This document shows, in pieces, positions 7,830 to 61,253 of a DNA stretch of 64,000 nucleotides (positions are counted from its first letter, which is position 1; each line of letters opens with the position of its first letter). A program made the translations under genes and the position numbers. The stretch is from Minisyncoccota bacterium (GTDB lineage: Bacteria; Patescibacteriota; Minisyncoccia; Phycocordibacterales; UBA9973). The stretch lies in the NCBI GenBank assembly GCA_041658325.1, contig JBBAAI010000001.1, forward strand, positions 154,869 through 218,868, in the 5' to 3' direction. The notes beneath the pieces were generated by a model. The model made no database searches and was not told the origin of the DNA. It saw only the letters and a list, made by a program, of their open reading frames with translations.

Positions 7830-9527
7830 CTATTCTTCGCGTAGGTCAACAACGCTTTGTACTTCTTCAAACGAAGTAATGCCATTTATTATTTTTACCA
7901 TTCCATCTTGGCGCATAGAAAGTATTCCTTGAGCTCTCGCAACTTTTTTTATTTCTCGTTCACTTGGATTTTCTGTCATAATTTTTTCTATGGCCTCGTC
8001 TGTTCTAATGGCTTCAAAAATACCCATTCTTCCTTTAAATCCTGTCATGTTGCATTTTTCACAGCCAACAGAAGAAAAAAGCTTAAAAGGAACATCTGGA
8101 TTTATTTTATAATTTGAAAGACTTTTCCCTTCTTCTTTTATGCTATTTAGAACAGATTTCATTATTTCTTCCTCTTCTTTGTTTGGGGTTTTTCCTTTTT
8201 TACAAAAAGCGCACAATTTGCGTACTAATCGTTGGGCGATAGAAAGAGACAAAGCTGAAACTAAAATTTTTGGGTTTACTCCAAGGTCGATAAGTCGGGG
8301 AATAACACCAGCGGCATTGTTTGTGTGAAGAGTAGAAAAAACTATATGACCAGTAAGGGCTGATTGAACTGCTATTTCGGCGGTTTCTTTGTCGCGAATT
8401 TCTCCGACCATTACCACATCTGGATCTTGACGGAGAGCTGAACGTAGTCCTTCTGCAAAAGTATAACCTCTTTGGTCATTTGTTTGAGTTTGAGTTATAC
8501 CGGTTAAGTGATATTCAATCGGATCTTCAATGGTTATTATTTTTATTTCTGGAGAATAAATTTTCCTTAAAAAGGCATAAAGAGTAGTGGTTTTTCCAGA
8601 GCCGGTCGGACCAGTAACTAAAATTAGGCCATTTGGTTTTACAATTTCTTGTTCTATCACAGAAAATAAAAATGGTTCTATTCCTATCTCTTCAAGTTCT
8701 ATTTGAATAGACTTTGGATCCAAAATACGCATGACGATTGATTCACCATATGCTCCGGGGATAAGAGAAGCACGAATGCTTATTTCTTCTTTTTCTTCCA
8801 TAATACTAAAACGTCCATCCTGAGCTATATTGGAAGTTAATTTCATTCCAGACAATAATTTAATACGCGAATTTAATAATTTATAAACATCCGTTCCAAA
8901 AAAACTTACATCTTGTAAAACACCATCAAGACGCAGGCGCAATCTACCCCTTTCTTGTTCTGGTTCTATGTGTATATCAGAAGCTTTAATGGCTATTGCT
9001 CCAGCTAAAATTACTTCTAAAAGACGAGAAATTTTATGAATTTTATTTCCCTCTAAGGCCTCCGTTATCATTTTTTGAATATCCTGTATTTTTTGTATTT
9101 TATTTGCTGTCTCTCTTAAAACTTCTCCAGAAATATCCAATCCTCCAATCTTTGAAGTTTCTGCCATTGAAATTTCTTTATATCTTTCCCAAACTTTATT
9201 TATACTGGCCGTGGATACCATGTAAAAAGTTGGAATCAGATTTTTTCTCTCCATATCCTCTTTTAACCTTTTTATAAGATCGTCTTTTGGAGAGTGCAAG
9301 GCTATAAAAATATTTTTTCCAAAAAGTTTAAAAGGCGCTACGTTCATTTCCCTAGAATCTTTTTCAGATATTGCTCGAAGTGCTTCATTGTCTATACCTA
9401 GTCGATAGAGGTCAATATAAGGAAGACCATATTTGGATTCCGCCAGGGTTGCCACCAACTGCTCCTCTTCTTGTTTGTGTAAATCTTCTAGTTGTTTATT
9501 TTGTTTTTCTTCATCAAATAAAGCCAT
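7830..9527 (-). CDS. pilB: type IV pilus assembly ATPase, PilB/GspE family
   Basis: N-terminal GSPII_E_N-like domain; Walker A LVTGPTGSGKTTTLYA; Asp/His boxes; tetracysteine CAFC...CEKC zinc motif. Confidence 0.8.
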   Translation of the reverse strand: MALFDEEKQNKQLEDLHKQEEEQLVATLAESKYGLPYIDLYRLGIDNEALRAISEKDSREMNVAPFKLFGKNIFIALHSPKDDLIKRLKEDMERKNLIPTFYMVSTASINKVWERYKEISMAETSKIGGLDISGEVLRETANKIQKIQDIQKMITEALEGNKIHKISRLLEVILAGAIAIKASDIHIEPEQERGRLRLRLDGVLQDVSFFGTDVYKLLNSRIKLLSGMKLTSNIAQDGRFSIMEEKEEISIRASLIPGAYGESIVMRILDPKSIQIELEEIGIEPFLFSVIEQEIVKPNGLILVTGPTGSGKTTTLYAFLRKIYSPEIKIITIEDPIEYHLTGITQTQTNDQRGYTFAEGLRSALRQDPDVVMVGEIRDKETAEIAVQSALTGHIVFSTLHTNNAAGVIPRLIDLGVNPKILVSALSLSIAQRLVRKLCAFCKKGKTPNKEEEEIMKSVLNSIKEEGKSLSNYKINPDVPFKLFSSVGCEKCNMTGFKGRMGIFEAIRTDEAIEKIMTENPSEREIKKVARAQGILSMRQDGMVKIINGITSFEEVQSVVDLREE

Positions 9528-9565
9528 TTACAATAAAGTATATCTTAAATGGTATAATTTACACA

Positions 9566-11986
9566 ATGCCTGAAAATAATAAAAAATTAGTACTACTAGA
9601 TGCTCACGCTATAATACATCGCGCATATCATGCGTTGCCAGAATTTTTGTCCTCAAAAGGGGAGCCCACTGGAGCTCTTTACGGTCTTTCTAGTATGTTA
9701 ATGAAAATAATTACTGAATTAAAACCAGACTACATTGTTGCTTGTTATGATTTACCACAGAAAACTTTTAGGCACGAAGCTTACGATGGGTATAAGGCGG
9801 GTAGAGCAAAAACAGACGAAGCTCTCATCTCTCAACTAAAGAACTCGCGTCAAATTTTTGAGGGATTTAATATACCAATTTATGATGCTCCTGGATTTGA
9901 AGCCGATGATATTTTAGGAACAATAGTAGAAAAATATAAAAAAGATAAAAAACTAGAAATAATTATTGCCTCGGGAGACATGGATACTATGCAATTAGTG
10001 GAGGATAAAAAGGTACAAGTTTATACTCTAAAAAAGGGAATCAATGACACCATTTTATATGACGAAGACGCAGTAATAAAAAGATTTAACTTTAAGCCGA
10101 AATTTTTACCAGACTATAAAGGTCTACGAGGTGACCCTTCAGATAATATTATTGGCATTAAAGGGATAGGTGAAAAAACTGCTGAAATTTTGATTACAAA
10201 TTTTGGAACGATAGAAGAAATATATAAGAAAATTAAAAAAGACGACGAAGTCTTCAAAAAAGCAGGGATTTCTCCGAGAATAATTGAATTACTAAAAAAC
10301 AATGAGGAGGAAGCTTTCTTTTCAAAAACATTAGCAACAATACGCACAGATGCACCAATAGATTTTGTTTTACCTACAAAAACTTTTTGGAAAAATGTGG
10401 ACCCTAAAAAAATAGAAGAAGTTTTTATTATTTTTGAATTTAGAAGTTTATTTGCACGATTAAAAAATTTTTTAAATTCTTCGGTAAATCCAGCAGAATT
10501 TTCTCAGGTCCTCGGTTCTCCGGGGCCCCGCACCCCGGCCAGACCGTTCGAAAATTCTCTGGATTCACCAATCAACATTAATACTCAAAAATTACAAGAA
10601 GCTAGTATCGCGCTCTGGCTTATTAATTCTGATATTTCAAACCCAGGATTGGAAGATATTTTGCTTTTTGCTAAGACAAAATCTTTTGAGGAGGCATATG
10701 AATTTATTTTTGATAAATTAAAAGAACAAAAATTAGATAAAGTATATGAAGAAATAGAAAAACCGATTATTCCCATAGTGAAAGAAATGGAAGATTTTGG
10801 AATTTTAATAGATAAAAAATATTTTGAAAAATTATCTAATGAATACCATAAAGAATTAGATATTCTAACTAAAAAAATATATAAAGAAGCTGGCGCAGAG
10901 TTTAATATTAATTCTCCAAAGCAAATGGGTGAAGTGCTTTTTGGAAAAATGGGGATGAAGTCTAGTAAAAAGAAAAATGCCAGCGGATCGTTTTCCACGA
11001 AGGTTTCAGTCTTAGAGGAGTTGGAAGAAAACAACCCTATCATAAAAGAAATTTTGGCTTATAGAGAGTTACAAAAATTACTTTCTACTTATATTGATGT
11101 AATTCCAAAAATGGTTTCTGAAGATGGTCGATTACACGCTAAGTTCTTGCAAAATGGAACTACAACTGGTCGATTTTCTTCTCAAGATCCAAATTTACAA
11201 AACTTACCAATAAAAACAGAACTGGGCAGAAAAATTAGAGGTGGTTTTATTGCTGAAAAAGGATGTAAACTCGCGGCCTTTGATTATAGCCAGATTGAAT
11301 TACGTGTAATAGCGATGCTCTCAGGGGATAAAAAGATGATCCAAATTTTTAAGGACAAAAAAGATATTCATGCTGGAGTGGCTTCTTTTGTTTTTGGGGT
11401 GCCTATTGAAAAAGTAGATGGAGAAATGCGTCGCAAGGCAAAGGTAATAAATTTTGGTATTATTTACGGAATGGGGGTTTCCGCCTTAAGAAAAAATCTT
11501 GGAGGTACCCGGGAAGAAGCTCAAAAATTTTATGATAATTATTTTAATCAATTTTCTGGTGTGCGAGATTATTTAGAAAAAGTAAAAATAGATGCTCTTA
11601 AAAAATTTTATACAGAAACTTTATTTGGTCGACGTAGATATTTTCCAAACATAAATTCTAGAATTCCATTTTTAAAAAATATGGCTGAGAGAACAGCAAT
11701 GAATGCTCCTGTTCAGGGCACGGCAACAGCAGACATTATTAAGCTTGCCATAAGATACGCAGAAGAAGATCTGGAAAAAGAGGGTTTATTAAAAAAGACT
11801 CATCTTGTGCTTCAAATACATGATGAATTAGTCTATGAAATAGACGAAAAAGCACTACCACAAGCCTTAAAAATAATAGAAAGTGCAATGAAGGATGTGC
11901 TCAACAGGTCATATTTACACTATAAAACTGATATTCCACTTGAAGTACATTCTGGTTCGGGAAATAATTTTATGGAAGTTAAATAA
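9566..11986 (+). CDS. polA: DNA polymerase I (5'-3' exonuclease + polymerase domains)
   Basis: 5'-3' exo N-terminus LVLLDAHAIIHRAYHA; polymerase motifs DYSQIELR, KVINFGIIYGM, QIHDELVYE. Start taken at MPENNKK (9566). Contains an in-frame GC-rich insert at 10510-10545. Confidence 0.85.
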   Translation: MPENNKKLVLLDAHAIIHRAYHALPEFLSSKGEPTGALYGLSSMLMKIITELKPDYIVACYDLPQKTFRHEAYDGYKAGRAKTDEALISQLKNSRQIFEGFNIPIYDAPGFEADDILGTIVEKYKKDKKLEIIIASGDMDTMQLVEDKKVQVYTLKKGINDTILYDEDAVIKRFNFKPKFLPDYKGLRGDPSDNIIGIKGIGEKTAEILITNFGTIEEIYKKIKKDDEVFKKAGISPRIIELLKNNEEEAFFSKTLATIRTDAPIDFVLPTKTFWKNVDPKKIEEVFIIFEFRSLFARLKNFLNSSVNPAEFSQVLGSPGPRTPARPFENSLDSPININTQKLQEASIALWLINSDISNPGLEDILLFAKTKSFEEAYEFIFDKLKEQKLDKVYEEIEKPIIPIVKEMEDFGILIDKKYFEKLSNEYHKELDILTKKIYKEAGAEFNINSPKQMGEVLFGKMGMKSSKKKNASGSFSTKVSVLEELEENNPIIKEILAYRELQKLLSTYIDVIPKMVSEDGRLHAKFLQNGTTTGRFSSQDPNLQNLPIKTELGRKIRGGFIAEKGCKLAAFDYSQIELRVIAMLSGDKKMIQIFKDKKDIHAGVASFVFGVPIEKVDGEMRRKAKVINFGIIYGMGVSALRKNLGGTREEAQKFYDNYFNQFSGVRDYLEKVKIDALKKFYTETLFGRRRYFPNINSRIPFLKNMAERTAMNAPVQGTATADIIKLAIRYAEEDLEKEGLLKKTHLVLQIHDELVYEIDEKALPQALKIIESAMKDVLNRSYLHYKTDIPLEVHSGSGNNFMEVK

Positions 11987-25469: not shown

Positions 25470-27320
25470 TTATTTTATTGTAGTGGTAGTGGTTTTTTTG
25501 CTAAAAGGTTGGCCAGGTTGACCGAAAAGATATTTAGCAATAAGCACTAATACTAGAATGAGAATAAGCAATAGAAGCCATCCGAAAAGATTTGTCGGAA
25601 GAAAACCAGCCCAGAAGACATTCGCCCCAAGGGAGATTTTGTCATTTGCTGGATCGCTCCAAACTTGTGCGGAGACGTTGGCGTTTACTGATTGAACTTG
25701 ACCAGAAGGATCGATGTAAGAGAGAGTAGCAGGGAAGTTTAAGTTTGTTCCAGCTGGAATATTTTCTCTTACTCGTACTCTCACAGTAACTGTACCTTGG
25801 CCATTTGCTCTAAGTGTTCCTAGATTAAAGACTAAAGTATTGCCAGAAATAATTGGATTGCTTGGAGTTGAGAACATATAATCTACTTCATAAGGAAGAT
25901 TCATTCTCAAAGTAAGTCCAGTTATAGAAGCAGTTCCTATGTTTTGGTAATTTACTGTGTAATTGATTTCATCTCCTGGGCGTGGTCTGGTGTTGTCGAT
26001 TGTAGGAACAATTGGTTGATTGCGATCAATAGAAGAATTGATAAGGACAAGCGAGGTTGGAATAACGGGGTTTGTGTTACTTGCTCCTCGTACATTTATG
26101 GTTACCGAATCAGTATCAGATCCAAAAGCATTGCTACAGGTAATATTATAAGTTCTACTTCCTGTTAATGATCCAGTGTAAAAAGATCCAGGGCCAATAC
26201 TTCTAGTTCCTACCCATCCATTTGATCCACCACTAGCATAACAAGATGTTGCGTTCGTAGTAATCCATCTTATCGTAGCTGCTCCGTTATAAGGAACGCT
26301 CGCTTGATCTGCGTAGAGTACAACTGTAGGTAAATTATTTACAGTATTATATCTACAAGGTAACGTACCTCCATAGTTAATAGCATTTACATCTTGGCAA
26401 ATATTATTTATTTGATTTACATACACTGTCGCTGAAGCATTAGCGGACTGCCCAGTACTGTTCGTACAAGTGACACTATAGTTGGTTGTATATGTTGGAT
26501 AAACTGTTTGAGATCCAGAAGTTGAGTTACTTCCACCCCATGAAGTCGAACAAGATGTTGCATTAGCTGAAGACCAGTTTAAAACTGAACTTTGACCAGA
26601 GGTAATACTTGTTGGATTAGAGTAAAGGAAGACGGTGGGTTGTGCGCTTTGATATCTACAAGGTAACGTACCTCCATAGTTAATAGCATTTACATCTTGG
26701 CAAATATTATTTATTTGATTTACATACACTGTCGCTGAAGCATTAGCGGACTGCCCAGTACTGTTCGTACAAGTGACACTATAGTTGGTTGTATATGTTG
26801 GATAAACTGTTTGAGATCCAGAAGTTGAGTTACTTCCACCCCATGAAGTCGAACAAGATGTTGCATTAGCTGAAGACCAGTTTAAAACTGAACTTTGACC
26901 AGAGGTAATACTTGTTGGATTGGCAGTAAGAGAAACAGTAGGAGTAGCTTGCTGACAAGCAGGCATAGTAAGACTTCTGATATTTAAAGCTTCTGTTCCA
27001 TAGTCGTTTGTAACTATAAGTCTGTAGTAGTATGTGGTGCTTTCAGAAAGACCAGAGATGTATTGTTCAATAGGAAAAGTTCCTTCTGTAGTAAAATACT
27101 GCATCGGAGTTGGAGTTCCTCCACCGTTTGCTACAGTATTATATGACGTATCATATTTAAATTGGGCTCTCGCTGGAGGAGTACCAGTAAAAACCGTACC
27201 AGTAATGGTAACACTATTACAGGTCAACGCAGATGCCGGAGTGGCAACAGCGAAAGAACCTAAGAGGGTAAAAATACCCAACATTAACCCGACCAAAAAT
27301 TTTATATTATTATTTTTCAT
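25470..27320 (-). CDS. large surface protein with signal peptide, Thr/Ser/Asn-rich tandem Ig-like repeats and C-terminal TM anchor
   Basis: Signal peptide MKNNNIKFLVGLMLGIFTLLGSFAVATPASA; C-terminal hydrophobic LLLLILILVLVLIA; internal perfect duplication of about 96 aa. Confidence 0.6.
   Translation of the reverse strand: MKNNNIKFLVGLMLGIFTLLGSFAVATPASALTCNSVTITGTVFTGTPPARAQFKYDTSYNTVANGGGTPTPMQYFTTEGTFPIEQYISGLSESTTYYYRLIVTNDYGTEALNIRSLTMPACQQATPTVSLTANPTSITSGQSSVLNWSSANATSCSTSWGGSNSTSGSQTVYPTYTTNYSVTCTNSTGQSANASATVYVNQINNICQDVNAINYGGTLPCRYQSAQPTVFLYSNPTSITSGQSSVLNWSSANATSCSTSWGGSNSTSGSQTVYPTYTTNYSVTCTNSTGQSANASATVYVNQINNICQDVNAINYGGTLPCRYNTVNNLPTVVLYADQASVPYNGAATIRWITTNATSCYASGGSNGWVGTRSIGPGSFYTGSLTGSRTYNITCSNAFGSDTDSVTINVRGASNTNPVIPTSLVLINSSIDRNQPIVPTIDNTRPRPGDEINYTVNYQNIGTASITGLTLRMNLPYEVDYMFSTPSNPIISGNTLVFNLGTLRANGQGTVTVRVRVRENIPAGTNLNFPATLSYIDPSGQVQSVNANVSAQVWSDPANDKISLGANVFWAGFLPTNLFGWLLLLILILVLVLIAKYLFGQPGQPFSKKTTTTTIK
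26351..26931. repeat. 303-bp direct tandem duplication (2 copies, 278 bp identical per unit) inside surface protein gene
   Basis: Read directly: atctacaaggtaacgtacctcc...gttggatt occurs at 26351-26628 and 26654-26931 without mismatch. Confidence 0.9.
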
Positions 27321-27384
27321 ATTATTTTATTAATTAACCCACGCTTTTGGCGGGGCAAGTTATTAAAAGTGAAACTAATTTTTC

Positions 27385-27470
27385 ACTCTCTAAAGATATG
27401 ACGTAGAAACAATGTTTTTATTTCATAGCTTTAGAGAGTGGAGGAGGGGAGCAATGCTCTCCCTCCTCAC
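27385..27470. promoter_or_regulatory. two adjacent inverted repeats in the intergenic region between surface-protein genes (terminator/regulatory)
   Basis: cactctctaaag...ctttagagagtg (12-bp arms) and gaggaggggag caatg ctccctcctc (11-bp arms). Confidence 0.4.
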
Positions 27471-27480
27471 AACAGATGTC

Positions 27481-28296
27481 TCAGTAGTAATAACCGGTAT
27501 TTCCGCCGTATCCTCCGTTAGGAGGAACGTAGCCATTGGTGTACCCACCAGGGTTGTATCCAGTGGTGTATCCACCGGGGTTGTAACTGCCAGTGTATCC
27601 GCCTACAGTGTAACCGCCAGTGTATCCGCCCGGAGGTACCCCAGGACGAACATAAGGAGGCTGGACGTAATTGTTGTAGCTGTACCCTCCGCCTCCGCAT
27701 CCTCCGCCCAAAGAAATGGAGAGCGAAAAGGATTTTGTGGCTACTGGCGGAGGTGCATAAGCAACCTCGTTTCCATTGTGTCCGTTGTACCCATTGTACC
27801 CATTGTACCCATTGTACCCCGGGGGTCCTGGGTCGCCCTTTTCTCCTTTGTCGCCCTTTGGTCCTTGAGTAAGCTGTGTTTGGTTTACTGTTGGAACAGG
27901 GGCTTGAACCGATGCATGAGGATAGTGAACCTCATATACCGGGTTGCCGCATGCGTCGAGTGCATAGGGCTTCAAGGTTTTATCTCCGAGCACATCCCAC
28001 CGCAGAACTGCTCCGGTGAGCAGGATGACCCACTGCTTTCCGGCGGTGGTCAACATGTGGACCACCGCGTTGCTCTCCAGCGGGGCCGTGATCTTGTTGG
28101 TCCCGTTCACTGGATTGTTCTCCTTAAACCCAAAGTACTTGGGCTCATAGGGGGTAAAGTTTCCCGAGAGTAGGGCAGCGTCTGCCGCCTCGCTGGTCGG
28201 AAACAGGTTGGGTTTGCTTTGAGCGCTGGCTGGCGCGCTCATCAGGGTGGCGACAACCGCCACGAAAACCAACGACGCTACCAGTGCTTTTCTCAT
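27481..28296 (-). CDS. secreted collagen-like, Gly/Tyr-rich protein; GC-rich (compositionally foreign)
   Basis: Signal peptide MRKALVASLVFVAVVATLMSAPASA; GPKGDKGEKGDPGPPG collagen triplets; (YNG)4; GGYTGGYT-type C-terminus; much higher GC than flanks. Confidence 0.6.
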   Translation of the reverse strand: MRKALVASLVFVAVVATLMSAPASAQSKPNLFPTSEAADAALLSGNFTPYEPKYFGFKENNPVNGTNKITAPLESNAVVHMLTTAGKQWVILLTGAVLRWDVLGDKTLKPYALDACGNPVYEVHYPHASVQAPVPTVNQTQLTQGPKGDKGEKGDPGPPGYNGYNGYNGYNGHNGNEVAYAPPPVATKSFSLSISLGGGCGGGGYSYNNYVQPPYVRPGVPPGGYTGGYTVGGYTGSYNPGGYTTGYNPGGYTNGYVPPNGGYGGNTGYYY

Positions 28297-28446
28297 CTTA
28301 AGCCCTCCTCAGGCTATTATTACTACTTTTTTGGTGTGCGATGCGGAGAGAGTCTCCACATCTCTTTCGTCTAAGATTGTATCATACACCCATAATAATG
28401 TCAAGTGCTATGTAGACAAATAGTTTATGTGTGTTTTTATGAATTG

Positions 28447-28518
28447 TGCCTCCGGCAGGAATCGAACCTGCATCATAACTTCCGCAAAGTTACGTCCTAT
28501 CCATTGAACGACGAAGGC
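28447..28518 (-). tRNA. tRNA-Arg (anticodon read as GCG)
   Basis: Reverse complement folds as gccttcg acceptor, D-stem gttc/ggac, anticodon stem taact/agtta with loop ttGCGga, T-arm gcaggttcgattcctgc; no CCA. Anticodon assignment by hand. Confidence 0.6.
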
Positions 28519-28585: not shown

Positions 28586-29080
28586 CTAGAATCCTAAAAC
28601 TTCCATGATTTTTTCTGAAGGATGTTCTTTCATTTCAATCTCTGCAATATTTTTTGAAATCATTATTGAATGAATTTCCGTTGCGATAGTTTCGTCTATT
28701 GGGATTGAAAGTATTGGCATAAAGACTCTCTCTAAATTTATAAAAAGAGTTGGTTTTAGCTTAGTTTCTCCTGATGTGTCTAATTGAACCCAAAAAGATT
28801 TTATATTTTCATAAGGACAAAGACGATTTCTGATTTTTAGTCCCTTGGTGTTTAACTCATAGTTAACAATGTCTGGTTTTTTAATTGCAAAAAAGCCTAG
28901 CAAGACTCCCGAGAGTAAAAGAAGCGCTGCAAAAAAATAATTGGCAAAAATAATGGAAGCGATTGAGCTCGTAGCAACAATAATTCCAAGAGCCCAAAAC
29001 CAATCTTGGCTTCTTTCCTTTTCTTCGTATTCTAAAGCGGACCAAGACAATCGATTATTTGAGTTTTCGTTTACATTCAT
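28586..29080 (-). CDS. hypothetical membrane protein (2 TM)
   Basis: 164 aa; two hydrophobic helices near the N-terminus; no motif recognised. Confidence 0.4.
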   Translation of the reverse strand: MNVNENSNNRLSWSALEYEEKERSQDWFWALGIIVATSSIASIIFANYFFAALLLLSGVLLGFFAIKKPDIVNYELNTKGLKIRNRLCPYENIKSFWVQLDTSGETKLKPTLFINLERVFMPILSIPIDETIATEIHSIMISKNIAEIEMKEHPSEKIMEVLGF

Positions 29081-58590: not shown

Positions 58591-58750
58591 AAAGATAGTT
58601 CTTTAAAATTACTTGCGAAGGTGGTCATAGCCAAAAGGTGCTTAATATTAGGCATTTCCTGGCTATGACTACCGTTGTGGTTGTCCTCTAGCAAAAACCT
58701 AACCGATGCGTCCTATGGGATGTGTCAAAGAAAAAGGAAGGATGTGCCAA

Positions 58751-59377
58751 ATGGCAAATGCGTCCGAAATCTCTGTCGGTTTAGTTCACGAGCTCGCCAT
58801 CACGGGCACCAAGGTCGGATTCGAGCCCAAAGACTTCGCTACTCTCGCCCACAGCGAGGAAAGGATGTCTTCCATCCTCGGCGTGCTTCATGGTACGCAC
58901 GAGATCCGTCCGATCGATTATGTGATCGATTTCAACTCTCCGGCTCGGTTGCCGTTCAACGGTGCCGTGCTCGAGGTGCACCGCGGAACGGGCATCGTCA
59001 AGCTCGAGAAGAAGGCCGACGGCCTGTATCTCGACGGAAAGAAGCTCACGCTCTTTCTCTCCAAGAAGCAGAAAAAGGGAGGCGTCATCGAGGGCAACAA
59101 GCTTCGCATCGAGCTCGAAAAGAGGGGTAAAAATGTAGGAGCGAAACTCCTTGACCACTTCGTCGAGCATCCAGAGATGTGGCCCGAGGAGTGGAAGAAG
59201 GACGACCAGGGTAATACGCTCTACGTGTTTTTCTGGGATGACATCTTCCGCAACCCGGCGTGTGGCGATCTGTATGTCCGGTGTGGGTGCTGGCGCGGAG
59301 GCGAGGTCATCTCGGGCTACGACTGGCTCGGCGATGACTGGCGCGGCCGCAGCCCGGCTGTCTCTTCCGTAAGTTAG
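58751..59377 (+). CDS. DGR target (variable) protein; C-terminal VR; GC-rich
   Basis: About 208 aa. The 3' 124 bp is homologous to the TR with mismatches only at TR adenines. Start chosen at MANASEISVG (aggaagg SD 9 nt upstream); ORF track alternative start is 58706. Confidence 0.75.
   Translation: MANASEISVGLVHELAITGTKVGFEPKDFATLAHSEERMSSILGVLHGTHEIRPIDYVIDFNSPARLPFNGAVLEVHRGTGIVKLEKKADGLYLDGKKLTLFLSKKQKKGGVIEGNKLRIELEKRGKNVGAKLLDHFVEHPEMWPEEWKKDDQGNTLYVFFWDDIFRNPACGDLYVRCGCWRGGEVISGYDWLGDDWRGRSPAVSSVS
59246..59369 (+). repeat. DGR variable repeat (VR)
   Basis: ttccgcaacccggcg...gctgtctcttccg; 104/124 identical to TR; all 20 mismatches lie opposite TR adenines. Confidence 0.85.
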
Positions 59378-59426
59378 TAATCAGAACTTTGCCTCTTGGA
59401 TCTTCTTGATCCTTGAGACTTAGTCC

Positions 59427-59473
59427 TTGGGCCCTGTGTGTTTGCTTCGGCATTCGCGCAGGGCCTTTTGTTT
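59427..59473 (+). terminator. hairpin + T-run after target gene
   Basis: gggccctg tgtgtttgcttcggcattcgcg cagggcc ttttgtttt. Confidence 0.55.
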
Positions 59474-59706
59474 TGGTAAAATAAATATGGTAGTAGGTGA
59501 ATACGCGAGCGACCACGGTTTCTCGCTACCGAATCCAGTATCCGTATGTCGAGAATATTTGCGACTAAGGTTTCAAATAGGGTGATATACGAAGACACTT
59601 CAAAAATGAAGTTACTTGGTGTAAGGTGCTATGGCATTACGATGCCGAATACGATACAACCTTGAGAGTATTCAAAAGGTGGTGGCACAGAAGGCAGCTT
59701 ACACAT

Positions 59707-59830
59707 TTCCGCAACCCGGCGAATGGCAATCTGTATGTCCGGTATGGGTACTGGAACGAAGGCAAGGTCATCTCGAACTACAACTGGCTCGACAATGACT
59801 GGAACGGCAACAACCCGGCTATCTCTTCCG
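59707..59830 (+). repeat. DGR template repeat (TR)
   Basis: Intergenic copy of VR, rich in AAC/AAT codons (nine Asn codons in VR frame). The open frame in the ORF track (59626..59859) is a consequence of VR homology. Confidence 0.85.
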
Positions 59831-59839
59831 CAACTTACT

Positions 59840-60205
59840 TCATTTCTCTCTCGTCTTAACGGCGGGAGAGTTTTGTTTTAGGAGTTGTCCGTTCCAACCC
59901 CCGAGCATTTTTCCAATTTCTTCTATTTTTTGAGAAAGAACAATATATTTTTTATCGTCAATTGATTTTGCTTCCCATAAAACCATCAAAAGTATTTTTA
60001 GAGTATCTGATTTTCGTATCGCTAACCGAACCCAAGGATGTTTTTCTTCTCGAGATAAAAAAGTAGCGATAGAAACAGCTTCAATAATTTCAATAAACAT
60101 CGTATCAATCTTTAATCCCAAAGAGTGCTTGTGTATTTTGGGCAGAATTTGATAAAAGGTAATCCAGAGAAGATAACAGCTCTTAACTTTTGCCAATAAT
60201 GGCAA
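59840..60205 (-). CDS. avd: Avd-like four-helix-bundle accessory protein (TIGR02436 / 23S rRNA-IVS protein family-like)
   Basis: About 120 aa; EAVSIATFLSRE and EEIGKMLGGW match the AVSIPSNIAEG and eeIgkML signatures of the family; lies between TR and RT on the opposite strand; apparent TTG start. Confidence 0.5.
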   Translation of the reverse strand: MPLLAKVKSCYLLWITFYQILPKIHKHSLGLKIDTMFIEIIEAVSIATFLSREEKHPWVRLAIRKSDTLKILLMVLWEAKSIDDKKYIVLSQKIEEIGKMLGGWNGQLLKQNSPAVKTREK

Positions 60206-60210
60206 AAGTT

Positions 60211-60220
60211 GGGGGGGGGG
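60211..60220. repeat. G10 homopolymeric tract in the divergent avd/RT intergenic region
   Basis: gtt gggggggggg tac, 17 nt upstream of the RT ATG. Confidence 0.9.
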
Positions 60221-60236
60221 TACTATTATAAATACT

Positions 60237-61253
60237 ATGTCCCGAATCCAATTTAGTCATACTTACGACTATATCATTTCTCTAGAAAATCTGCTTTTGG
60301 CGTGGAAAGAATTTGTTGTCGGCAAGAAAAATCGCAAAGACGTAGAAGAATTTCAAAGAAATTTGATGACTAATATAATTTCGTTACATACGGATTTAGT
60401 AAATAAAGCATACAAGCATTCCCAATATGAAGCATTTAATATTTCTGACCCAAAACCGCGCAATATTCACAAAGCGAAAGTACGGGACAGATTATTACAT
60501 CATGCGATTTATCGAGTTTTGTATCCTTTTTTTGACAGGACATTTATTACTGACTCCTATTCTTGCAGAAAAAACAAAGGAACACATAAAGCCATAAACA
60601 GATTCAGAAAATTTGCCTATCAAGCGTCAAAAAATCATACCAGAACAGTTTGGGTTTTGAAAGGGGATATTAAAAAATTCTTTGCTAATATTGATCACGA
60701 AATATTAAAAGGAATTTTGAGAAAACATATTCAAGATAAAAATGTTCTTTGGCTCTTGGGGCAGGTGATAGATAGCTTTTCTTCCCAAAAACATATTTAC
60801 GCTATCGCTGATATATGCAGTAAGGGTTTACCACTCGGCAATCTAACTTCCCAACTTTTAGTAAATATTTATATGAATGAATTTGATCAATTTGTGAAAC
60901 ATAAAATCAAAGCGAAACACTATGTTCGTTATGCGGATGATTTTGTAATTTTGTCGCAAAATAGAAAATGGTTAGAAAATACAATTGTTAGAATAAAAGA
61001 TTTTCTTGAAAATGAACTTATGCTTTCTTTACATCCTGCAAAATTATCCATAAGTACCGTTGCCTCTGGCGTGGATTTTTTGGGTTGGGTTTTATTTCCA
61101 GACCATAGGGTAGTCAGGACTATCACGAAACGGAGGATGTTTCATGGTGTAAAAAAGAAGCACGGGAGTTTTGAAACAGTGCAATCATATCTAGGCTTGT
61201 TAAGCCATGGAAATGCAAGAAAGTTAGAAAGTGAGATAAAAAATTATATTTGA
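60237..61253 (+). CDS. DGR-type reverse transcriptase
   Basis: RT motifs 1-2 (ISDPKPRNIHKAKVRDRLLHHAIY), motif 4 LGNLTSQLLVNIYM with DGR-specific SQ, motif 5 YVRYADDFVIL (YADD); 338 aa. Confidence 0.85.
   Translation: MSRIQFSHTYDYIISLENLLLAWKEFVVGKKNRKDVEEFQRNLMTNIISLHTDLVNKAYKHSQYEAFNISDPKPRNIHKAKVRDRLLHHAIYRVLYPFFDRTFITDSYSCRKNKGTHKAINRFRKFAYQASKNHTRTVWVLKGDIKKFFANIDHEILKGILRKHIQDKNVLWLLGQVIDSFSSQKHIYAIADICSKGLPLGNLTSQLLVNIYMNEFDQFVKHKIKAKHYVRYADDFVILSQNRKWLENTIVRIKDFLENELMLSLHPAKLSISTVASGVDFLGWVLFPDHRVVRTITKRRMFHGVKKKHGSFETVQSYLGLLSHGNARKLESEIKNYI

Follow-up and report, generated by a model that had tools for sequence, protein, structure and literature searches.

A GC-rich gene for a secreted head-stalk-tail protein at a variable slot beside tRNA-Arg in Patescibacteria

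The collagen-like surface proteins of prokaryotes, such as Scl1 and Scl2, have been reviewed, and rotary shadowing of Scl revealed a 'lollipop' shape (PMC8968730). The collagen stretches of the Bcl proteins vary between 27 and 1158 residues (PMC8968730). Another module of surface proteins, the isopeptide-bond domain CLIPPER (renamed from DUF11), is typical of fibrillar adhesin stalks (PMC12617251). Here we describe a gene of 27481..28296 on the minus strand in a 64,000-nucleotide stretch of a Minisyncoccota bacterium (assembly GCA_041658325.1, contig JBBAAI010000001.1, positions 154,869 to 218,868; hereafter the window), which encodes a secreted protein of 271 aa with a head, a stalk and a tail. 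This gene, termed the slot gene, is located between a tRNA-Arg gene and a CLIPPER gene, and it is much richer in GC than its neighbors. The Borrelia vls locus is a variable surface-antigen locus with conserved flanks and expression signals, in which the gene is far GC-richer than the AT-rich genome and recombination is suspected. Two kinds already known are seen here, namely a locus for variable surface proteins and a collagen-like surface protein of bacteria, and the uncharacterised head fold together with the GC bias sets the window locus apart. We propose with moderate confidence that it is a hypervariable and strongly expressed surface-protein cassette, the alleles of which turn over by recombination within Paceibacteria.

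Similar to Scl, the slot protein has a signal peptide, an N-terminal globular head, a charged Gly-X-Y stalk with KGD/KGE motifs and a C-terminal surface-attachment region, and the head differs strongly between strains. However, its stalk of 11 triplets (33 residues) is near the low end of the Bcl range and is placed by Pfam Collagen just below threshold, the head adopts an unrelated fold without a solved relative, and a Gly/Tyr tail is found in place of an LPXTG anchor. Moreover, 126 of the 143 family representatives do not have any collagen stretch. The likeness to CLIPPER/DUF11 adhesins resides in the conserved downstream neighbor, which possesses the domain and a transmembrane (TM) anchor, with both surface-protein genes co-located in many genomes, whereas the slot protein itself has neither a CLIPPER domain nor a predicted isopeptide fold. 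Different from vls, no silent cassettes or repeats of the slot gene were found in the 64-kb window, and the variation exists between genomes, with none between two assemblies of one population. The head also resembles the PAN/apple domains (HGF N domain, MIC4 and Wsc1) in having one helix packed on an antiparallel sheet; no significant structural or sequence similarity of the head to PAN/apple structures was detected.

Slot alleles compared with their flanks

Loci collected via the slot gene itself (L003 and the other L numbers denote loci of relatives) are biased toward its presence, thus the flanking 164-aa membrane protein, encoded upstream at 28586..29080 on the minus strand and having 1038 homologs at E ≤ 1e-20, served as the unbiased probe. 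The copy of this flank protein in the window is annotated by NCBI under 'MAG: Candidatus Paceibacterota bacterium'. The probe gave five relatives, L026-L030, with flank identities of 76-86%. The slot genes in L026, L029 and L030 are GC-rich and encode very divergent family members, seen only by a broad hidden Markov model (HMM; E-values of 3e-11 to 4e-6); their tails are similar to that of the window protein, and two of them have a collagen-like stalk. L027 has an empty slot, with the CLIPPER gene directly following the conserved promoter downstream of tRNA-Arg. The slot of L028 is filled by an fn3-like gene of native composition. Simple vertical inheritance, as drawn from the loci found via the slot gene, was overturned by this sampling.

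Comparison of head and flank identities among eight genomes (28 pairs) revealed a Spearman coefficient of -0.13, with head identities of sampled pairs from 17% to 68%. For example, the window and L026 share 85% identity in the flank and 24% in the head, and the window and L017 share 61% and 51%, respectively. Alignment of the window against L026, the closest sampled relative, using blastn yields an identity of ~74% down to position 28376 at the end of the -10 box and again from position 27452 in the terminator hairpin, with no similarity detectable across the 5' untranslated region (UTR) and the coding sequence. In addition, the codon identity at conserved residues exceeds chance by ~0.04 in the slot gene versus ~0.14 in the flanks, indicating that the synonymous sites of the slot gene are saturated and those of the flanks are not. 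As the alleles do not track the flanks, one close relative has an empty slot and the synonymous sites are saturated, these data are best explained by lateral allele turnover within the lineage. The divergent alleles independent of their flanks, the presence or absence of the gene and the sharp borders at the transcription unit are best fitted by a replaceable cassette. The slot alleles would have been repeatedly replaced by recombination among Paceibacteria, some with GC-richer genomes, presumably under diversifying selection on the surface protein.

The principal alternative is that the gene has descended vertically in the slot and diverged there to an extreme degree under positive selection, its GC-rich codons being kept by selection, for instance on translation or mRNA stability of a very abundant protein. 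It would account for the promoter, the 5' hairpin, the Shine-Dalgarno (SD) site and the position, all of which are kept around all alleles, and for L025, where both the allele and the adjoining gene are like those of the window. Nevertheless, we regard it as rather unlikely, as head identity is independent of flank identity, synonymous saturation above the flanks is not predicted by protein-level selection alone, and the slot of one close relative is empty. The allele of L025 (P0028) groups with that of the window in a neighbor-joining (NJ) tree of the head domain, in which the bootstrap value was 43% for the window with P0021 and P0028, and 1% for the window with L003/L008/L011; the grouping is suggestive only. 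These closest alleles, P0021 and P0028, are on contigs of 1-1.7 kb, and only the initial residues encoded by the downstream gene served to judge how closely their genomes are related. The N-terminus of the downstream CLIPPER protein in L025 is the closest to that of the window, at 56% identity.

Several points weigh against turnover by recombination. Near-identical alleles in distant genomes were not found, leaving no direct trace of recent transfer. The promoter is kept before all alleles, even the most divergent, which fits divergence in place as well, and the closeness of both the L025 allele and its CLIPPER neighbor to those of the window looks like co-inheritance. No difference in the gene was seen between the two assemblies of this population, which gives no sign of rapid switching. 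Moreover, GC-richer donors poorly explain the GC enrichment of every allele from an AT-rich genome, for which a GC-favouring force may be needed. Finally, the function is read from architecture and neighborhood only.

Base composition and the source of the GC bias

The slot gene has a GC content of 0.55 and a GC content at third codon positions (GC3) of 0.58, in a window of 0.362 GC. The 64 other open reading frames (ORFs) of the window have a GC3 of 0.271 ± 0.052 and do not exceed 0.395; the gene deviates from them by z ~6, which bears out the preliminary description of a gene much more GC-rich than its neighbors. The same amino-acid sequence written with the codon usage of the window would have a GC of 0.45 and a GC3 of only 0.29, indicating that about half of the GC excess is due to codon choice and ruling out amino-acid composition as the source of the high GC. 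The gene uses TAC in 73% (background 20%), AAC in 64% (27%), GAG in 86% (6/7; 19%), CTG plus CTC in 65% (12%) and TTA in 0% (38%) of the cases. The bias is strongest in the part that encodes the head, where the GC3 is 0.67-0.70 depending on the boundaries chosen.

C is the most enriched third base (0.36 versus 0.13 in the background), and EF-Tu also favours NAC codons, both of which are in line with vertical descent under selection on codons. However, EF-Tu has a GC3 of 0.32 and a third-position C of 0.20 and retains GAA, and the EF-Tu and ribosomal protein genes together show a GC3 of 0.19-0.35 and a third-position C of ~0.20, whereas the slot gene uses GAG, CTG and CTC. Translational selection alone, as seen in this genome, was therefore rejected as the source of the bias.

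The bias is shared by the slot genes of relatives. In all 11 AT-rich genomes compared, the GC3 of the slot gene is higher than that of the neighbors: 0.58 versus 0.26 in the window, 0.50 versus 0.32 in L003, 0.54 versus 0.24 in L007, 0.53 versus 0.32 in L008, 0.39 versus 0.30 in L011, 0.77 versus 0.29 in L018, 0.59 versus 0.27-0.33 in L021, 0.57 versus 0.27 in L025, 0.59 versus ~0.28 in L026, 0.57 versus ~0.33 in L029 and 0.67 versus ~0.27 in L030. In genomes of 0.43-0.60 GC, the slot gene is near or slightly over the background, with a regression slope of 0.52. Exchange with GC-richer Paceibacteria having the same locus might have made the alleles GC-rich, and a recombination hot spot subject to GC-biased gene conversion might have done so as well. 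We infer that the 'foreign' composition is a property of this gene pool and no mark of one recent import.

The preliminary description had considered the gene as likely horizontally acquired and its product as possibly a phage tail-fibre-like or cell-envelope structural protein. One recent acquisition from a foreign donor, forming an island beside a tRNA gene, might be suggested by the GC3 deviation, the position directly downstream of a tRNA gene and matches to PHROG tail-fibre families (E ~1e-5). However, these matches are limited to aa ~105-192, which is essentially the Gly-X-Y stretch, whereas the head has no match among the BFVD viral predicted structures at E ≤ 1e-3 and no relative of the family is encoded in IMG/VR contigs. 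Integration at the tRNA site was rejected, since neither an integrase nor a tRNA-derived direct (att) repeat was found. The promoter is native and conserved. Homologs of the same composition at the same locus, which the preliminary description had named as evidence against such an import, were found in many related genomes, with at least 17 loci in total and a GC3-elevated slot gene in 11 AT-rich genomes. Judged by that evidence, the synteny contradicts a one-off insertion of foreign DNA, which we consider very unlikely, and the phage origin is not upheld. What stands of the suggested horizontal acquisition is lateral allele turnover within the lineage.

Hypermutation confined to the transcript was also considered, in which a diversifier similar to a diversity-generating retroelement (DGR), or one coupled to RNA or transcription, rewrites the segment from promoter to terminator and leaves it GC-rich. 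The divergent GC-rich segment indeed spans from just past the -10 box to the terminator, and a complete DGR, with a reverse transcriptase (RT), an Avd-like gene and a template region/variable region (TR/VR) pair, is present in the same window at 58.7-61.3 kb; its target is the other GC-rich gene of the window. Nevertheless, this explanation is highly improbable. No second, template-like copy of any part of the gene was found in the 64-kb window, where only chance matches of 12-13 nt occur; A and T are equally depleted at third positions, which gives no adenine-specific signature of the DGR type; the two assemblies are identical; and whole tails and domains differ among alleles, beyond point mutagenesis. 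The slot gene was ruled out as the target of the DGR, which has its own VR and TR.

The DGR itself is located at 58706-61253, directly after the genes of ribosomal proteins L24 and L5. It is composed of the target gene (58706-59377, plus strand; 223 aa, GC 0.57, GC3 0.72; VR at ~59241-59376), the TR (59703-59837; 83% identical to the VR, with mismatches at TR adenines), the gene of an Avd-like four-helix protein (59840-60205, minus strand) and the RT gene (60237-61253, plus strand), which encodes a YADD motif and is of native composition (GC3 0.29). The target is the only other GC-rich outlier gene in the window. In L008, a DGR-type RT gene and an Avd-like gene (9096-10497) are located a few kb downstream of the slot.

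A further view, which we hold to be unlikely, is that the locus is an analogue of an antigenic-variation locus in the candidate phyla radiation (CPR), where the strong promoter is constitutive, only the transcribed body is replaced or converted, and the process itself keeps the GC high. That process would be GC-biased gene conversion or a diversifier bounded by the transcript, and the same might explain the GC-rich DGR target.

Architecture of the protein and its family

The gene starts with ATG and ends with the stop codon at 27481-27483. An identical 271-aa protein is assembled in ENA ERZ27247322 and Logan SRR8449812, and the DNA in SRR8449812 is 100% identical; the gene sequence is the same in two independent assemblies, including the copy number of a 9-bp repeat. 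The protein begins with a predicted Sec signal peptide (aa 1-25; 28222..28296, minus strand), in which the n-region MRK, a hydrophobic core and the c-region with a predicted cleavage between ASA and QS are recognizable from sequence features; no lipobox cysteine is seen in the signal peptide. It is followed by the head domain (aa 26-130; 27907..28221, minus strand), which comprises one helix and six antiparallel strands.

The collagen-like stalk (aa 145-177; 27766..27864, minus strand) is an uninterrupted run of 11 Gly-X-Y triplets, which starts with GPKGDKGEKGDPGPPG (GPK GDK GEK GDP GPP) and continues in register with GYN GYN GYN GYN GHN GNE. The preliminary description had noticed the collagen triplets and a (YNG)4 repeat; both are present, and the run is longer than it stated, extending through GYN, GHN and GNE. 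The Pfam Collagen model PF01391 matches the protein with an E-value of 8.1e-6 and 26.0 bits, slightly below the gathering cut-off of 27.2. The head (aa 26-130) and the tail (aa 178-271) agree with one part of the definition of prokaryotic collagen-like proteins in PMC8968730. The (GYN)n part is encoded by an in-frame 9-bp microsatellite, GTACAATGG on the coding strand (27773..27819, minus strand; period 9, 5.2 copies and 89% matches by Tandem Repeats Finder), the exact-period part of which covers ~27785-27819 with 3.9 copies, a few bases off the 27790-27825 first given for it.

The C-terminal tail (aa 199-271; 27484..27702, minus strand) is rich in Gly, Tyr, Asn, Pro and Thr (GGGCGGGGYSYNNY ... 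GGYTGGYT ... GYYY), and two 27-bp repeats at 27529-27627 encode its units GGYT/GYNP. Neither an LPXTG motif nor a TM segment is seen in the sequence of aa 178-271. Tails related to that of the window protein are present in P0027, P0028, P0038, P0052, L011, L026, L029 and L030. The ORF, the signal peptide, the Gly-X-Y run and the tail were all found, so that the secreted collagen-like protein with a Gly/Tyr tail is encoded by a real gene, as the preliminary description had it.

That description had also pointed to long antisense ORFs. One of 253 aa is present at 27412-28173 on the plus strand, in the codon-matched antisense frame, which is open because the sense gene has neither TTA nor TCA and a single CTA (Leu42); the antisense stop codon at 28171-28173 is that very CTA. 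The antisense ORF is a by-product of the sense gene. The existence of this ORF might suggest an annotation artefact, with the true gene on the plus strand or a non-coding region, which is extremely improbable: the promoter, the SD site, the signal peptide and the terminator all belong to the sense ORF, and the latter has 219 homolog clusters and a predicted fold with a pLDDT (predicted local distance difference test) of 97.

Searches with the full-length protein were swamped by low-complexity words and gave 8 matches, and a word-index search with the head only gave fewer; an exhaustive profile search was used instead. The head profile detected these 219 clusters (at 50% identity) with E ≤ 1e-3, of which 144 have E ≤ 1e-10, the E-values reaching down to 1e-52. 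Among GTDB species genomes, all 10 head matches are in metagenome-assembled genomes, nine titled Paceibacterota or 'Saccharibacteria' and one 'bacterium', and a metagenome scan added few further loci. No Pfam or NCBIfam model and no PDB sequence match was found for the head domain. By sequence, the head defines an unnamed family found to date only in Patescibacteria.

Alignment of 146 sequences by hmmalign revealed the motifs F..(C).AL.SG.F..YEPKYFG ... CGN(P) in the head of ~100 aa, which the window member fits; residues Y50, C116 and N118 are invariant. Cys38 in the helix and Cys78 in the next strand are both present in 126 members, both absent in 12 and single in 8, and their co-occurrence (Fisher p ~1e-11, not corrected for phylogeny) suggests a disulfide bond between the helix and the sheet. 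The window protein has A38 and V78 in place of this pair, as do 11 other members, P0028 being one of those without both cysteines; it belongs to a minority having lost both. In addition, in two long repeat proteins, P0124 (858 aa) and P0140 (1946 aa), only the final hairpins of the profile (~71-124) are matched, five to nine times and via a motif of the '...LDSAGNPHISY' type. A β-hairpin or propeller-blade unit that occurs in repeats may be a relative of the C-terminal half of the head.

The tails vary among 143 family representatives: 38 have a TM-like segment, the ends of 23 are Gly-rich, and Ig-like or other domains are found in others. In 17 of the 143, and also in L029 and L030, the head is directly followed by five or more Gly-X-Y triplets. 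The architecture reads as a conserved head, a Pro-rich or collagen-like stalk and a variable C-terminus for anchoring or adhesion.

Expression signals, neighboring genes and proposed role

A near-consensus sigma-70 promoter (28376..28404, minus strand), with TTGACA, a spacer of 17 nt and the extended -10 element TG-n-TACAAT (11/12 matches), is located ~80 nt 5' of the ATG. TTGACA or TTGACT with the extended -10 element is kept in seven aligned slot-gene loci (the window, L003, L008, L011, L026, L029 and L030) and in L007 too. The form common to the slot-gene loci after tRNA-Arg(GCG) is TTGAC(A/T)-17-TATGATA(C/T)AAT, and a similar promoter is directly ahead of the downstream surface-protein gene in L027, with its empty slot, and in L028. 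The 5' UTR contains a stem-loop (28335..28357, ±3 nt, minus strand) with a 10-bp stem of GAUGUGGAGA and UCUCCGCAUC and the loop CUC; the RNA fold of the UTR has an energy of -15.4 kcal/mol. A small G-rich hairpin is kept at this position in eight loci with a different sequence in each, and it probably acts as an mRNA stabiliser. The putative SD site GAGGAGGG (28303..28310, minus strand) is 6 nt ahead of the ATG, and AGGAG-type sites are kept in the orthologs. A GC-rich terminator hairpin (27441..27470, minus strand; -27.9 kcal/mol, z = -3.5) is found 3' of the stop codon. Taken together, the promoter, hairpin, SD site and terminator suggest a gene built for high and stable expression. Between the terminator and the CLIPPER gene, there is a 28-nt inverted repeat (27384-27440), the arms of which are 86% complementary and 1 nt apart; it might serve as another terminator or as a regulatory hairpin.

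The upstream landmark of the slot is tRNA-Arg with the anticodon GCG (28446..28518, minus strand; ARAGORN, Rfam 60.4 bits), which adjoins the slot in L003, L008, L010-L012, L014-L017 and L026-L030. In the AT-rich clade (the window, L003, L008, L011 and L026-L030), this tRNA and the slot gene share a strand, and in L017 and the GC-richer loci (L010, L012 and L014-L016) they are on opposite strands, a clade-specific inversion of the tRNA. The downstream partner (25470..27320, minus strand) encodes a protein of 616 aa with a signal peptide, Ig-like repeats, a CLIPPER/DUF11 domain (Pfam PF01345, E 1e-9) and, at the C-terminus, a TM anchor. The gene next to the slot on the downstream side is a CLIPPER gene in L003, L007, L026, L027 and the P0012 locus, and a homologous surface-protein gene in L008, L017, L025 and L030; the link to this repeat-containing surface protein, noted in the preliminary description, is thus real and kept across many genomes. 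The gene itself contains a 303-bp tandem duplication (26349-26929; 1.9 copies, 99% identical) that doubles an Ig-like module of 101 aa; downstream of it there is a third copy, which has diverged. This points to a recent repeat expansion.

Other neighbors in the window include RuvX, PilM, a pseudouridine synthase, an ABC ATPase and tRNAs. The 347-kb contig of L003 has the same order of RuvX, DUF5652, tRNA-Ser, the 164-aa membrane protein, tRNA-Arg(GCG) and the family gene, followed by a GC-rich lipoprotein-like gene missing from the window, CLIPPER/DUF11, the pseudouridine synthase and the ABC ATPase. The core arrangement is repeated in L007, L008, L010-L012, L014-L017, L025 and the P0012 locus, in genomes of 0.36-0.60 GC; these loci, together with L003, L026, L029 and L030, have a family member at the slot. 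Some relatives, and not the window, have a second GC-rich slot gene on the opposite strand, encoding a small lipoprotein-like, BACON-like protein (L003 8737-9363, minus strand, GC3 0.61 versus ~0.31 in the neighbors; L010 1788-2540; L012 2884-3375; L015 7191-7682; L016 3757-4248). Mobile or selfish elements are found near the locus in relatives, such as the RT and Avd-like genes of L008. In the P0012 locus (JGI 3300050046), genes for a large serine recombinase and small HTH proteins are located upstream of the 164-aa gene, and a LAGLIDADG endonuclease gene adjoins tRNA-Ser in L029 (3724-4311).

In the proposed cassette, the Sec-exported protein would display the conserved head, probably a binding module, on a stalk that is either proline-rich or collagen-like. 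If the head or its neighbors trimerise, the stretch of 11 triplets, rich in KGD/KGE, could give a putative triple helix of ~9 nm. Retention at the surface would depend on a TM anchor in some members, and on the sticky Gly/Tyr tail in the window member. Such a tail is similar to Tyr-rich structural or adhesive low-complexity proteins, and it may serve for envelope retention or adhesion. From their conserved pairing, we infer a physical or functional partnership of the slot protein with the TM-anchored CLIPPER protein, and the two probably have a joint role in host or surface attachment.

The locus also provides a caution that atypical GC beside a tRNA gene alone is no proof of a recent foreign insertion. 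GC-rich codons that persist in many AT-rich genomes despite complete sequence turnover offer a test of recombination-driven GC bias versus selection in uncultured organisms. The head domain is widespread and unannotated, with a prediction of very high confidence and no solved structural relative. CPR/Patescibacteria are thought to be attached to other cells, and their surface molecules are almost uncharacterised. The slot protein and a CLIPPER-type adhesin form a conserved pair preceded by a near-consensus promoter, which marks the two as likely major surface components and as candidate determinants of attachment and host range.

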